Positions 7,010-12,578 of a stretch of 64,000 nt of DNA are shown here, piece after piece; the first letter of the stretch is position 1; every line of letters begins with the position of its first letter. The translations under genes and the position numbers were made by a program. The stretch lies in the IMG/VR virus record IMGVR_UViG_3300028535_000001; one strand, written 5' to 3'. The notes below the pieces were generated by a model. The model was not told where the DNA came from. It did not search any database and saw only the letters and a program-made list of their open reading frames with translations. This DNA is from a virus.

Positions 7010-8179
7010 TTAGAATCCCTCCGCTACAGTATGTTTAGTCATAATTTCTGTTTCACCAAACTCTAAATCCATTTTAATAATAGTTGGCGGTGCGCCTTTT
7101 TCATCTGGTATTAATGATGATACAACACCTTCGGGTGCATAATCAATATTACATGATTTTAAAACACAGCGGCTAACTCTTGGTATATATGAGTTTTCAC
7201 TTTCTCTGTACATATATGTTATTTGAAATTCAGATGGTGTTATGAAATATCCTCCTTGAAGACCATTTGATTGTTCAGGTAACATATGAAATCTTAACAA
7301 TTGTAAAATTTTGTGTACTTGGTCTTTCTCTGACTCATCTTTTGGTGCAAATATAAATGGAAAATTAAATGATCTAAATGGCACAGATTGGAATATCATT
7401 TCTAAATTTTGGTTCTTTGCTTGACCTAATGCTTTGTCTAATGTTTGTCTAGCATTTTCAAAACCTGGTATTATACCAATAGCCCCAAATCCAGCTGACT
7501 TCATTACTTCACCAATCAGTTGACCGCCTTTTTTACCAGCTGTTTTTATTTTATCTATCCAACCAGTTTGATTCATAACAGAACCAATAGCTTGGCCTAA
7601 ATCACCTGCTAAACCTGTTTGTGTATCTTCATAACCCACACTGTAATTAAATTTCATTGACTCTGCTGGCGTATATAATATAATACTATCTGAAATATAA
7701 TTATGCGTATCACCTGTTTTGGATACTAGACCAGAAGATGTTGATCTTAATCTGCTGGATTGGGATATGCCATTTCTTTTTATGTTTGCTATTCTAGTTC
7801 TACTGCCTTTGGGTTTATGGCGAGCTTCAAAACCAGATAGTGTTTTACCACCATCTAATTGTCCATTCTGAAAAGTCTGTTGTTTAAATTTGGATGATTT
7901 GTGAGATACAATATCAAATATAATATAATGGCCGGCACCTAAATTAGATGTTTCATTTGGATAGTATACTGTACCATATTGATATGGATTATTTATAGAC
8001 TCCATATGTGATAATGGACCTGTTGTTCCTATCTCTAACGGCGATTTGTTTAATAGTTTGGCTGCCACTTTGGTTGTTTGACCAGATGAGGCAAAGGATA
8101 ATTTACTAGCAATTGCGCCAGAAACCATGTTACCTATTTTACCTTTAACTATGTTTTTGATCTTGTTTGTCCAAGCCAT
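7010..8179 (-). CDS. gp48: Baseplate tail-tube cap gp48 (start revised to MAWTNK)
   Basis: LEMIFQSVPFRSFNFPFIFAPK, PSEFQI, CVLKSCNIDYAP, LEFGETE; AAGGA RBS and late promoter upstream of 8179. Confidence 0.85.
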   Translation of the reverse strand: MAWTNKIKNIVKGKIGNMVSGAIASKLSFASSGQTTKVAAKLLNKSPLEIGTTGPLSHMESINNPYQYGTVYYPNETSNLGAGHYIIFDIVSHKSSKFKQQTFQNGQLDGGKTLSGFEARHKPKGSRTRIANIKRNGISQSSRLRSTSSGLVSKTGDTHNYISDSIILYTPAESMKFNYSVGYEDTQTGLAGDLGQAIGSVMNQTGWIDKIKTAGKKGGQLIGEVMKSAGFGAIGIIPGFENARQTLDKALGQAKNQNLEMIFQSVPFRSFNFPFIFAPKDESEKDQVHKILQLLRFHMLPEQSNGLQGGYFITPSEFQITYMYRESENSYIPRVSRCVLKSCNIDYAPEGVVSSLIPDEKGAPPTIIKMDLEFGETEIMTKHTVAEGF

Positions 8180-8219
8180 ATTTACTTCCTTTATATATAC
8201 TGGTATATTTATAACGGAT

Positions 8220-8648
8220 ATGAAGAAATCTTTTAAAGGATTATATAAACCAGAGAACCCCAAAAAATATGTTGGTGATGTAAAGAATATAATATACCGT
8301 TCTCTTTTAGAGAGACGTATGATGGTGTATTTAGATAATAGTCACAATATAGAACATTGGGCTAGTGAAGAATTGCCTATTAGATATTATAGTCCCATTG
8401 ATAATAAATGGCATAGATACTTTCCAGATTTTGTAGCAAAGACAACTAAAGGTAATAGGGTAGTAATTGAAGTTAAACCATCACGCCAATGTGTTCCACC
8501 TAAAAAACCAACTAGCAGAAAAACTAAATCTTATATGAGAGAGTCTCTTGAATATATCAGAAATAAGGCTAAATGGCAAGCCGCTACCAAATATTGTAAA
8601 ACTCAAGGTGCTGAATTTAAAATTATTACTGAAAAGGATTTAACCTAA
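8220..8648 (+). CDS. gp4: Head completion nuclease gp4 (start revised to MKKSFKG)
   Basis: KG.YKPENPKKY.GD, YRSLLER, W.SEE, HRYFPDF, IEVKP, N.AKW.AA, KIITE. Confidence 0.92.
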   Translation: MKKSFKGLYKPENPKKYVGDVKNIIYRSLLERRMMVYLDNSHNIEHWASEELPIRYYSPIDNKWHRYFPDFVAKTTKGNRVVIEVKPSRQCVPPKKPTSRKTKSYMRESLEYIRNKAKWQAATKYCKTQGAEFKIITEKDLT

Positions 8649-10117
8649 TCTGTCCAACGACTATCCGAAGTATCTATTATAGTTCCATCTTTTGAATCAT
8701 CTACAACACTAATATTTGCATTTGAAGCTTGACTGTTATCAGTAACTACGTTATTAAAAATGCTTGTATCAATACCTTTTTTTGCTAAATAATCGTTATT
8801 AGCTAAATTCAAAGCCTCAAATTCTGCTACAGCGTCTTTTTGCGCTTTCTTGTCTTCATAAAATTTTTTATTGCTGTTATATGCCAAAGGAACAGTAACT
8901 TCCAGTCCTTTATCAGCCTTATCCATTTCATCTTTGATTGTAGGTATTTTTCCAGCTGTTGCTGTAGACATTAAATCCATTTCTAAATCTGCTATCTTTG
9001 CCGTTAGTTTTGCTATCTTTTCAGGATCTTGGTCATCGGACCAGAAACCACTACCTGGAGCTGATTTAGATTTTTCATCTGCTAATTTATTTTGTAGTTT
9101 TTTAAGTTCATCTGATTTTGCTGCTTCACCTTCCTCATCTACTAAACCTAATTTTCTACCTAACCATGAATATTTGAACCAATCCATCAATTTTTTGAAG
9201 AATTGCCCAATTGCTTTTATCTTTGTTGCAACAAAAACAATAGCAGCAATTACCAATGCAAATTTAGCAATCAATATTAATCTAGCAAGTGAGAAAAAAC
9301 CACCTATTGCTTTTAAACCTTTCCAAAGACCTTTAAATGCTTTTAAGAATATACCACCAGTTAAGAAATTAACTAGTTCTACTGAACCCTTACCTGTATC
9401 TTTCATCATATTAAAAGCTTCACCTATAGCATGAAAAGGTTCCATGAAAGCCATTTTTAATTGATCTAAAAACATAGGCAATCCTTTAGATTTTTGTCCT
9501 GTGTTGGCAGTGACGTTAAGTGTATCGCCTGAAGTATCTTTATCTTTTTTTAATTTATCTAGTTCTTTTGTATTAGCAACTATTCTATCTTTTGTTGTTT
9601 TCTTTTCTTTATTGGATAAACTATCCCCAACCTGTAATTTTTTTCTATCTCTATCTAATTCTGTTTCTATTTTTGTAATATTCTTTTCTTTTAATTTAAA
9701 TATCTTTTCTTCTTGTCTTATTTGTGATCTAGTTAATACTTCAACCTCTTTGGTCTCTTTATTAACACGTGCAACAATATTTTGTTCTCTTAATTTTGTT
9801 ACAGTCTCCTCTGACTCTCTGGCCTTTGTTTCTCTTTGTATCAATAAATCTGCCAACTCTGTACTGTATTCTCTTAAATCTAGACCTAACTTTTCAACCA
9901 ATTTTTCTAATTTCACAATCACTCTTGTAAAACTATGAACAGGACCTTTCTTCAAATCAACTGTTAACTCATTTATCATTTTAGGTATATTGGGTAGAAT
10001 AGTCTTAGCTGAGGCTGCAATTGAGCTGTTAACCTTTGCCTTTATTATCTGACCTAAACTGTCAATCGCTTGTTGTGTTTGGTCTGTACCTTGGTTTTCT
10101 ACTATTGGTAATGCCAT
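8645..10117 (-). CDS. Probable tape-measure/gp29-like protein
   Basis: Long coiled coil plus amphipathic and hydrophobic segments; downstream of gp26/gp51. Confidence 0.5.
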   Translation of the reverse strand: MALPIVENQGTDQTQQAIDSLGQIIKAKVNSSIAASAKTILPNIPKMINELTVDLKKGPVHSFTRVIVKLEKLVEKLGLDLREYSTELADLLIQRETKARESEETVTKLREQNIVARVNKETKEVEVLTRSQIRQEEKIFKLKEKNITKIETELDRDRKKLQVGDSLSNKEKKTTKDRIVANTKELDKLKKDKDTSGDTLNVTANTGQKSKGLPMFLDQLKMAFMEPFHAIGEAFNMMKDTGKGSVELVNFLTGGIFLKAFKGLWKGLKAIGGFFSLARLILIAKFALVIAAIVFVATKIKAIGQFFKKLMDWFKYSWLGRKLGLVDEEGEAAKSDELKKLQNKLADEKSKSAPGSGFWSDDQDPEKIAKLTAKIADLEMDLMSTATAGKIPTIKDEMDKADKGLEVTVPLAYNSNKKFYEDKKAQKDAVAEFEALNLANNDYLAKKGIDTSIFNNVVTDNSQASNANISVVDDSKDGTIIDTSDSRWTD

Positions 10118-10122
10118 ATTAG

Positions 10123-10482
10123 TTATTTATCTTTACCCTTATCTGATCCTGCATATAATCCGAACCAGGCAGCGCCAGCACCAACAACAACAGAAATTAA
10201 TCCTGATTGTTCCATACTAGGTTGTCCTAATTCCATATACCATATTACACATTTGTATAATAATATAATATACGTTGTTATGAATATTCTAGGGAATATT
10301 CTCCAACTATCTATTGCTCTTGCTAAGTGAATCCATTTTCCATATGGGTTTACGCCTATGTCTCTGATTGAGGTATCCACATCAAGATCAACCCTAATTT
10401 TTTGTTTAGGTTCTTTTACTGCTACAGGTTCTAACTTTTTTTCTATTTTAATTTCTTTAATTTCTTTAATTTCTTCTGACAT
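10123..10482 (-). CDS. Two-TM membrane protein
   Basis: WRIFPRIFITTYIILLY and GLISVVVGAGAAWFGLY segments. Confidence 0.65.
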   Translation of the reverse strand: MSEEIKEIKEIKIEKKLEPVAVKEPKQKIRVDLDVDTSIRDIGVNPYGKWIHLARAIDSWRIFPRIFITTYIILLYKCVIWYMELGQPSMEQSGLISVVVGAGAAWFGLYAGSDKGKDK

Positions 10483-10483
10483 A

Positions 10484-10690
10484 TTATTCCTCCCTTATAA
10501 TATATTTAATTGGATAATCTGATTTAACAACTATCTTTTTTTCAGTTTCTACATTCCAAAAAGCAATATGGTTTGGTTTAATCTCAACAAACTTTTTAAC
10601 TTGTAAAGTTTCTGACTTGCCTTCAAACCAATAAGTTAATTGTGCAGGATGTCCTACAATCCAATACCATATGTTTTTTAGTATGCTCAT
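10484..10690 (-). CDS. Hypothetical protein
   Basis: Coupled ORF (TAATG junction). Confidence 0.6.
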   Translation of the reverse strand: MSILKNIWYWIVGHPAQLTYWFEGKSETLQVKKFVEIKPNHIAFWNVETEKKIVVKSDYPIKYIIREE

Positions 10691-10878
10691 TATTTCTCCC
10701 TTTTTCTTTTTTCATTTTCTTCTTTAATATAATTAATTAACATCGTAACGTAAATATCACGTTCCCATGGTATCATATGTTCAATCTCGGTAATGCTATA
10801 CTTATGATGTTGCATTAACGAAAAGTTTACTTCAAAAAACGCCTCTAGGCTACTATGGGTGAGGCCAATCCGAAAAAA
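10690..10878 (-). CDS. gp51: gp51-like baseplate assembly chaperone frame (first ATG at 10815; frame open back to the slippery site)
   Basis: Manual translation IGLTHSSLEAFFEVNFSLMQHHKYSITEIEHMIPWERDIYVTMLINYIKEENEKRKREK*; MQHHKYS..E.E.M.PWER is the gp51 signature. Confidence 0.85.
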   Translation of the reverse strand, partial: FFRIGLTHSSLEAFFEVNFSLMQHHKYSITEIEHMIPWERDIYVTMLINYIKEENEKRKREK

Positions 10879-11579
10879 TCGTTGAGTCCTTCAAAGGTCA
10901 CTTTACTTTTAACACCTGTCTTTGGATTTGTGACTTCTTGCGTATGTCTCAATCTAGGCATAGTATCAAAAAATTTTCTAATTTTATCAAAAGTACCTTG
11001 TGGCATTTTCTCAAAAAATTCTTTTAATTCTTCTTTAGTAGTATCTACTCCAGGGTACACTTTATCTCCTTCAAAAACTTCGTGTACACAACCTAACATT
11101 AAATCAAATACAGTATCGTAATCAGCGTCCTTTAACGTTTTGCTGTTTATCATTGCCATCGTAGGATATTTGAGAACAACACCCAATTGCCTAGTGTCAT
11201 CAAATACTACTTTGTTTGTATGTCCATCATCTACTTGGACCTCAATCTTTGATATGTCAATTTCAATATCTGTATAAGTTTTCTTATCGTCTGGACATAT
11301 AACTTGAAATTTTGATATTTCACCAACTGACTTTGCTCTTATTTGTAAGAACATATACTCAATGTCAAATGTAGGCAAATTTAAAATATCTATTTTGTTA
11401 AATGTACAAGCACCTAAAACTTGTTTGGTTGCTTCTTGTATTTGTTTTTCTTCACCAGACTCTAGAGCAATCAACATCATTTTTTCTTCTTTTACAAGAA
11501 AAGGTCTAAATTTAACTTTTGTTTCTTGCGAAGGTAATGTCAACTCATAAGTTGGTGTTTCTATTATCGGTAATGCCAT
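10845..11579 (-). CDS. gp26: Baseplate hub assembly protein gp26
   Basis: MALP..TPTYEL.LPS, FRPFLVKEEK, FDIEYMFLQIRAKSVGE, FFDTMP, EGL.DFF. Confidence 0.9.
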   Translation of the reverse strand: MALPIIETPTYELTLPSQETKVKFRPFLVKEEKMMLIALESGEEKQIQEATKQVLGACTFNKIDILNLPTFDIEYMFLQIRAKSVGEISKFQVICPDDKKTYTDIEIDISKIEVQVDDGHTNKVVFDDTRQLGVVLKYPTMAMINSKTLKDADYDTVFDLMLGCVHEVFEGDKVYPGVDTTKEELKEFFEKMPQGTFDKIRKFFDTMPRLRHTQEVTNPKTGVKSKVTFEGLNDFFGLASPIVA

Positions 11580-11597: not shown

Positions 11598-12578
11598 TTA
11601 TATATTTATTGGTGGTAGTTTGAACGGTGGGAACACTCTACCGCCAGTAATTCTACCTAGTGGTGCTCTACGTCTCAAATTGTTCAATACGTCTCTACCT
11701 GCTCGTCTCAATTCTGGTGGAAGTTTACCTAATAAACCTCCAAATAAACCGGACTGTTCTTTTACACTTGGTTTTCCAAATTTAGGTTGACCAAGTTCTA
11801 TGTTGCCTTGTTTGTCTAAAAAGAAATTAATCCAATACATAAATTTAAATGTAACTGTAAATGTTTGTACTGTATTTGAATCATGTGAATAATCTACTTT
11901 ACTAATACTTGTTGGTAAACAATCAAACAATTGTACACCATATGTTATTTCGTCTCTCTCTTGTCTAGACGCAAATGATCCTAACTGATATATTCTCATA
12001 TCTGACACGTAATTTTTATAGTAATTCATATTGAAAGATTTAGTACTGAAAGCGGCACTTTGCCACATTTCAAAATATGATCTTTCTCTCATAAATTTAT
12101 CTGCATAAAACGTTGCTGTAATCTCTGCTGATTTAAAATCAATTGCAACGTGTCTAGTTGGTGTATTACCATGTCTAACTTCTTTGGTAACTATTTCTCT
12201 ATCAGGCATTTCAATAGCACTACAAAATGCTTGAACACGTCTACCGTTTGCTATATGTACTGCATTCATATCTTGAGCTGTAAAAAATGAATCATACGTT
12301 TCATCTGCCATAGATGAAGATACGGAACCTGCTGAACCATCTGGTCCACCACCTAAAGATTTAGGTAACATAAACTCAACATAAAATCTTGCCTTACGAG
12401 CAAAACCTTCTGCCTCATTTACCATAGCCTGCACTCTACCCATTGTAGATTCAGGATTACCACCCATATTTCGTTTTAATCTTTTATCACCTGCCACATT
12501 GTCAAGTGATCTATCTCTCGGTATACCAATTCTAATATCGTATCCGCCTATTCTTTTTCCGCCTCTTAATATCGCCAT
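11598..12578 (-). CDS. Tail tube initiator/gp54-like protein
   Basis: Tube-fold motifs C...EMP, ITATFY.D, YFEMWQ, FTVTF; position next to gp2. Confidence 0.6.
   Translation of the reverse strand: MAILRGGKRIGGYDIRIGIPRDRSLDNVAGDKRLKRNMGGNPESTMGRVQAMVNEAEGFARKARFYVEFMLPKSLGGGPDGSAGSVSSSMADETYDSFFTAQDMNAVHIANGRRVQAFCSAIEMPDREIVTKEVRHGNTPTRHVAIDFKSAEITATFYADKFMRERSYFEMWQSAAFSTKSFNMNYYKNYVSDMRIYQLGSFASRQERDEITYGVQLFDCLPTSISKVDYSHDSNTVQTFTVTFKFMYWINFFLDKQGNIELGQPKFGKPSVKEQSGLFGGLLGKLPPELRRAGRDVLNNLRRRAPLGRITGGRVFPPFKLPPINI

Follow-up and report, generated by a model that had tools for sequence, protein, structure and literature searches.

A probable programmed -1 frameshift in the tail assembly chaperone gene of a pelagimyophage-like T4-type phage

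We ask whether the single gp26-like gene of an uncultured ocean T4-like phage gives rise to one protein or to two. To our knowledge, T4-type phages have long seemed to stand apart from the other long-tailed phages, in which a frameshifted tail chaperone is nearly universal. [quoted passage not shown] The gene studied here is located in a 64,000-nt stretch of DNA (IMG/VR record IMGVR_UViG_3300028535_000001), which was analysed as a whole and is referred to as the window. A preliminary description of this DNA proposed that a probable programmed -1 frameshift fuses gp26 to a gp51-like sequence, in the manner of the G/GT tail chaperones of phage lambda. The sequence comparisons reported below indicate that, very probably, one gene makes proteins of 244 and 296 residues via a one-base backward slip on TTTTTTC. 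The features of the locus are the following:

10845-11579, minus strand: gp26-like short-form gene (TAC-N), a 244-aa ORF in the 0 frame with a strong AAGGAG ribosome-binding site
10878-10872, minus strand: slippery heptamer T_TTT_TTC at codons D234-F235-F236, in X_XXY_YYZ phase
10872-10690, minus strand: -1 frame extension of 60 codons plus stop, the gp51 or TAC-NC equivalent
10893-10891, minus strand: TGA closing the -1 frame four codons 5' of the heptamer
10815-10690, minus strand: gp51-like 41-aa ORF as a gene caller would report it, covering the last two thirds of the extension only
10865-10841, minus strand: candidate hairpin GCCUC-N15-GAGGC, 6 nt 3' of the heptamer, unproven
11598-12578, minus strand: gp54-like baseplate tail-tube initiator (tube fold), the upstream neighbour
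8645-10117, minus strand: 490-aa tape-measure candidate, named from position and composition, two small ORFs past the chaperone pair

Every gene of the chaperone part of the window is carried by the minus strand. On this strand the end of the 244-aa ORF reads AAC GAT TTT TTC GGA TTG, and the short form terminates in N-D-F-F-G-L-A-S-P-I-V-A followed by a stop, with D-F-F encoded by GAT TTT TTC. The 0-frame stop (TAG, 10847-10845) lies eight codons past the heptamer. The -1 frame is open from 10890 and runs for 66 codons to a TAA at 10692-10690, and the heptamer is located within the 46-nt overlap of the two frames. Translation of the -1 frame gives RTQRFF-RIGLTHSSLEAFFEVNFSL-MQHHKYS..., and a slip on the heptamer would yield a protein of 236 + 60 = 296 residues, joined after F236. 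The preliminary description had placed a canonical T TTT TTC heptamer at the end of gp26, with coordinates, sequence and translation that are correct to the base, and the gp51-like continuation of the -1 frame translates as it had given. Among window ORFs of 150 aa or more, TTTTTTC is found in phase just 3 times in 16,187 codon positions. Because of this rarity and of the placement inside the 46-nt overlap, a chance origin of the heptamer is unlikely. Further in-phase T_TTT_TTC sequences occur at 9299 and 5867 (both minus strand), in long minus-strand ORFs, one of them inside the 490-aa tape-measure candidate.

From 79 loci belonging to the window's own family (protein identity 60-88 %), 52 unique sequences were obtained, and their nucleotide variation was analysed. 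Up to the heptamer, substitutions fall on wobble positions of the 0 frame; from the first codon past the heptamer, they fall on wobble positions of the -1 frame. The heptamer marks the exact point at which purifying selection leaves the 0 frame and acts on the -1 frame. Upstream (5') of it, the -1 frame of the relatives is interrupted by stops at many positions, and downstream (3') of it, before any start codon occurs, R, I, L, H, S, L, E and A show no variation. When 46 distinct extensions are aligned, 13 residues ahead of the first Met are the same in all.

The -1 frame lacks an evident start of its own. None of the 25 codons from its opening to ATG 10815 is an ATG, GTG or TTG, and ATG 10815, the first such codon, comes 21 codons past the slip site. 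No Shine-Dalgarno-like motif is found in the 25 bases upstream of this ATG, unlike most neighbouring genes, which have AAGGAG- or GGGAG-type sites. In 24 of the 52 unique relatives an Ile or Leu codon stands in place of this ATG, and the position of the first ATG varies from 4 to 45 codons past the slip site across all loci; a conserved start belonging to gp51 itself was looked for and is absent. The -1 codons that precede the ATG are conserved with no start codon and are therefore out of reach of ordinary initiation. In the structure prediction the extension is helical (pLDDT 75.6), helix 1 begins before the Met of ATG 10815, and this Met falls mid-helix. Likewise, the 41-aa ORF taken from ATG 10815 scores 67 bits against phrog_634 (positions 76-115 only), and the score rises to 98 bits with the pre-ATG sequence included; the match of the extended -1 frame has the two slip-site Phe as its first residues. 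The view that the gp51-like sequence begins before an ATG with no evident ribosome-binding site is thus borne out. Longer in-frame fusions among close relatives of the extension amount to only 3 fragments, on short contigs.

Next, we compared the two reading frames with the genes of T4. The 244-aa protein belongs to the T4_baseplate family PF12322 (3e-65, 220 bits against a cut-off of 24.5, profile positions 1-218 of 219) and matches phrog_150, 'baseplate hub', at 2e-70. The -1 extension matches phrog_634, the gp51 family, at 1e-27 and the tail of phrog_150 at 3e-7. In T4, PF12322 is present in both gp26 and gp51, over the first ~200 residues of each. The extra C-terminal part of T4 gp51 matches phrog_634 (residues 147-246) and also the tail of phrog_150. 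In the alignment, T4 gp26 stops at the G-L-x-E-F-F motif, where the codons are TTC TTT and form no heptamer, and T4 gp51 continues in frame through the junction, with D-V-F-K-L-L-V-N-P-D-E-I-F opposite D-F-F-R-I-G-L-T-H-S-S-L-E. By sequence, T4 gp26 and gp51 are paralogues that match the short and the long form respectively. T4 genes 26 and 51 are separate, as the preliminary description had noted, and are divergently transcribed.

The window holds a single PF12322 gene with an overlapping -1 extension, and the T4-style encoding of short and long forms by two genes is not found in it. The likeness to T4 therefore lies in the family (PF12322), in the phrog_634 extension and in the short/long pair; the difference is that T4 has two paralogous genes with no heptamer, whereas the phage described here has one gene with an overlap and would need recoding. 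On the basis of the gp26 and gp51 alignments, the single gene of the window would encode by recoding what T4 encodes as two paralogues.

If the heptamer is functional, it is expected in relatives, and its conservation was the check that the preliminary description had put forward. Among close relatives (complete viral-contig loci, 60-88 % protein identity), 78 of 78 have the identical in-phase heptamer with the -1 offset. Across the 52 unique relatives the entropy of the heptamer is zero, wobble bases included. More distant phage records (21-51 % identity) have the identical heptamer, phase and -1 offset in 13 of 14 cases: Pelagibacter phage Mosig, five cyanophages (including P-TIM68, Sf-CH11, P-SSM4 and MA01), Pseudomonas phage Astolliot, Aeromonas phages Ah1 and phiWae14, Vibrio phages 6E35.1a and V07, Stenotrophomonas phage Moby and Rhizobium phage LG08. 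The distance from the heptamer to the 0-frame stop is 2-10 codons in the distant phages, and the small ORF is invariably in the -1 frame. A C invariably follows the T run, even where the next residue is Leu and not Arg. Heptamer conservation together with the frame switch of selection supports the proposed fusion of gp26 to gp51, as far as sequence can carry it.

The exception is Vibrio phage D509 (OZ195733.1, ~2070-2100), which has CTT TTC AAG and a TAATG stop/start overlap; this lineage may use translational coupling or a single-tRNA slip instead. In D509 the ATG of TAATG is in frame with the gp51-like extension. A contig sharing 99 % identity with Stenotrophomonas phage Moby (IMGVR_UViG_2974778117_000001, ~1440-1460) has T5 and not T6, so that what follows the run is read in the third frame; an error in sequencing the homopolymer is the most likely cause, and natural run-length variation is conceivable. 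In Astolliot and Synechococcus phage MA01 the 0-frame stop (TAA and TAG, respectively) follows directly after the heptamer, and the short form ends exactly at D-F-F. In other phages the 0-frame tail has 1-8 residues and is predicted to be disordered.

Wider searches were also performed. A search of 1.8 billion cluster representatives returned 4,299 relatives, and nearly all of the best 150 of these 4,299 end at the FF motif. When further loci were sought with Vibrio and Stenotrophomonas phage proteins, 0 and 2 were recovered, respectively, and a megablast search of the 4 kb around the site against cultured phages gave no match.

Could the gp51-like part instead be a separate small protein that needs no recoding, initiated at ATG 10815 or by termination-reinitiation once ribosomes have reached the gp26 stop? 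A small ORF of its own is what gene callers predict and GenBank records list, and coupling is conceivable in the cyanophages, where the ATG comes 2-5 nt past the gp26 stop, and in the D509 lineage with its TAATG. Against this stand the 25 start-less codons before ATG 10815, of which 13 are invariant in amino acid with silent variation, and an ATG that has no Shine-Dalgarno sequence and is not conserved. A separate small protein would also leave unexplained the invariance of the heptamer down to its wobble bases and, likewise, the full-length fusion in T4 gp51, and we regard it as highly improbable. Still less credible is a decaying or mis-assembled gene, that is, a pseudogene or a single long gene split by a homopolymer sequencing error. 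Homopolymer runs are error-prone and one related contig (the Moby-like one) differs by one T, but the same T6 and two-frame layout recurs in the genomes of cultured phages and in ~90 assemblies made independently from many samples, and the endings at the FF motif among the best 150 cluster representatives point the same way; we give this reading next to no weight.

The same 296-aa protein would be made by transcriptional slippage, in which RNA polymerase adds an extra U in the U6 run of some transcripts. The site is a homopolymer run and the product (D-F-F-R-I) is identical, so the two mechanisms are inseparable by sequence analysis. Furthermore, the T5 of the Moby-like contig implies that the run is length-unstable at some level, or prone to sequencing error. 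The title of Vladimirov et al. 2022 could also be taken in favour of polymerase slippage. Efficient polymerase slippage usually needs a run of about nine, and the six U's of this site are short for it. In ~90 loci the run is never longer and the phase is always X_XXY_YYZ. Moreover, the C is kept after the run even at Arg to Leu replacements, where TTA or TTG would lengthen the run. The passage of the PRFect paper (PMC10885494) on this subject, which reads the title of Vladimirov 2022 as meaning separate short and long genes, also counts against polymerase slippage. We consider transcriptional slippage improbable and, judging from sequence and structural models, a programmed -1 ribosomal frameshift in the tail assembly chaperone gene of this pelagimyophage-like T4-type phage highly likely.

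Candidate stimulators of the slip were sought on both sides of the heptamer. The hairpin at 10865-10841 is invariant in the window's family despite rare codons (CTC 2.8 %, AGC 3.4 %). Compared with shuffled sequences its stability gives z -0.11, and RNAalifold returns 12 pairs with no compensatory change. The 60 nt past the heptamer give z = +0.86. Among the distant phages no common downstream structure was found: each folds differently (z -3.4 to +1.0) and the hairpin is not conserved. Since the hairpin is no stabler than shuffled sequence, shows no covariation and has no counterpart structure common to the distant phages, we do not claim a stimulator. An upstream Shine-Dalgarno-like stimulator (GAAGGA or GGAGGG, 7-9 nt upstream, seen by eye in several distant phages) was considered and rejected, its positions being variable in the window's family. 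A search of Rfam with 10600-11000 gave no match at E up to 1.

We then analysed the fold of the short form. The AlphaFold2 model has a pLDDT of 92.8 and a pTM of 0.87, and residues 239-244, the 0-frame tail, are disordered in it. Comparison with 48,161 chains using VIA-align ranked the HK97 TAC 2ob9 (Z 7.6), 3fgx (Z 7.5) and YqbN 3klu (Z 6.8) as the top three, values that are moderate, being below 8, in a range for which the tool warns that common arrangements can be reflected. Each of the three aligns over 84-85 residues, on model residues 1-89, and the fourth-ranked chain has Z 4.3. Foldseek against the PDB returned nothing at E up to 0.001 (2ob9 is at rank 43, E 2.8), and a sequence-profile search of solved structures gave nothing meaningful. 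The aligned part covers most of each chain of HK97 2ob9, B. subtilis prophage YqbN 3klu and 3fgx; the differences are an identity of 6-12 % only and the lack of a counterpart for model residues 90-238. The three matches form a coherent group, and the N-terminal residues 1-89 model as a tail-assembly-chaperone fold. This predicted fold, with the T4 gp26/gp51 paralogues as short and long forms, agrees with the likeness to G/GT that had been proposed.

The genes around the pair were annotated as well. The upstream gene (11598-12578) matches phrog_45 at 1e-31 and PF06841 weakly, and its homologue in Mosig is annotated as baseplate tail tube initiator. The 490-aa ORF has no match in Pfam, and BLASTP against T4 gp29 gives E 0.4. 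Its language-model features are near T4_Tape_measure clusters (score 0.93, a lead only). Position, tape-measure-like composition and this lead make the 490-aa ORF a candidate tape-measure gene. Between the chaperone pair and this ORF lie two small ORFs, at 10484-10690 and 10123-10482 (both minus strand). The pair had initially been placed between a tube-fold gene and the tape-measure candidate. Upstream of it the gp54-like tube-fold gene is found; on the downstream side the two small ORFs separate the pair from the 490-aa candidate, which is near and not adjacent. The ORF at 10484-10690 encodes 68 aa with no family match; the one at 10123-10482 encodes 119 aa with a hydrophobic C-terminal half and matches phrog_10198 (function unknown) at 4.5e-21. 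Mosig has two small ORFs at the corresponding place. On the opposite strand, a 173-aa ORF (8127-8648, plus strand) lies between the gp48-like gene and the tape-measure candidate and contains a TnsA-like endonuclease N-terminal domain (PF08722, 4e-20). Probably this ORF encodes a nuclease of mobile or homing type that was inserted into the tail module.

Compared with lambda gpG/gpGT, the locus has the same shared N-terminal part, an in-phase heptamer in a short overlap and a second frame with no start, and its gene comes after a tube-fold gene and before a tape-measure candidate. It differs in the heptamer (U_UUU_UUC here versus G_GGA_AAG in lambda), in a short form of ~240 aa with extra domains beyond the ~90-residue TAC fold, and in having no detectable sequence similarity to the lambda genes. 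Here, in addition, two small ORFs precede the tape-measure candidate, and the partners would be T4-type hub proteins.

From these observations we propose the following sequence of events. Ribosomes would initiate at 11579 and translate the gp26-like domain, until tRNA-Phe occupies UUU in the P site and UUC in the A site of U_UUU_UUC. Most ribosomes would continue and stop eight codons on, giving the 244-aa short form, and a minority would re-pair one base back and read CGG AUU GGC... for 60 codons, giving the 296-aa long form. The helical C-terminal extension of the long form would be the gp51-specific part. By analogy with lambda gpG/gpGT, the tape-measure protein may be coated by both forms while hub and tube are initiated, the extension may dock the complex to a tube or hub protein, and neither form would stay in the virion. 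We infer the ribosomal nature of the slip, its efficiency and the binding partners of the two forms; for the latter two, lambda G/GT serves as the guide.

How much of this has been described before? [quoted passage not shown] The corresponding passage of PMC12846349 credits Vladimirov et al. 2022 with poly-T -1 frameshift signals in the TAC-N genes of T4-like phages. In a review of the T4 tail (PMC3004832), gp26 and gp51 appear only under the hub assembly chaperones, with no mention of frameshifting. Going by these citing passages, the principle of a frameshifted T4-like chaperone appears to have been published before, in 2022, and the present locus is a well-supported, unannotated case of a known principle. 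It is unlikely that the 2022 paper is confined to the T4 two-gene solution and a poly-T pointer, and that the invariant rare GC-rich block (GCCUC...AGCCUAGAGGC) would be an undescribed stimulator or regulator of the slip. If this were true, the origin of the long form in single-gene relatives would lie beyond the 2022 paper, and the U_UUU_UUC slip would still be undemonstrated across the pelagiphages, cyanophages and Vibrio, Aeromonas, Pseudomonas, Stenotrophomonas and Rhizobium phages.

A joined CDS is annotated in none of the 14 examined GenBank records with a single gp26-like gene. In these records, and by gene callers, a 'gp51' of 40-60 residues with an arbitrary start is split off, or the sequence is unannotated. 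As the join is never annotated, the long form would be absent from protein databases for thousands of marine phage genomes. Given that the principle has apparently been published, the value of the locus lies in annotation and in a well-defined experimental target, and not in a new mechanism. For the T4-type phages, it offers a clear instance of what looks like the ancestral state, a single frameshifted gene; T4 genes 26 and 51 have the appearance of a duplicated version of it in which both forms are hard-wired.
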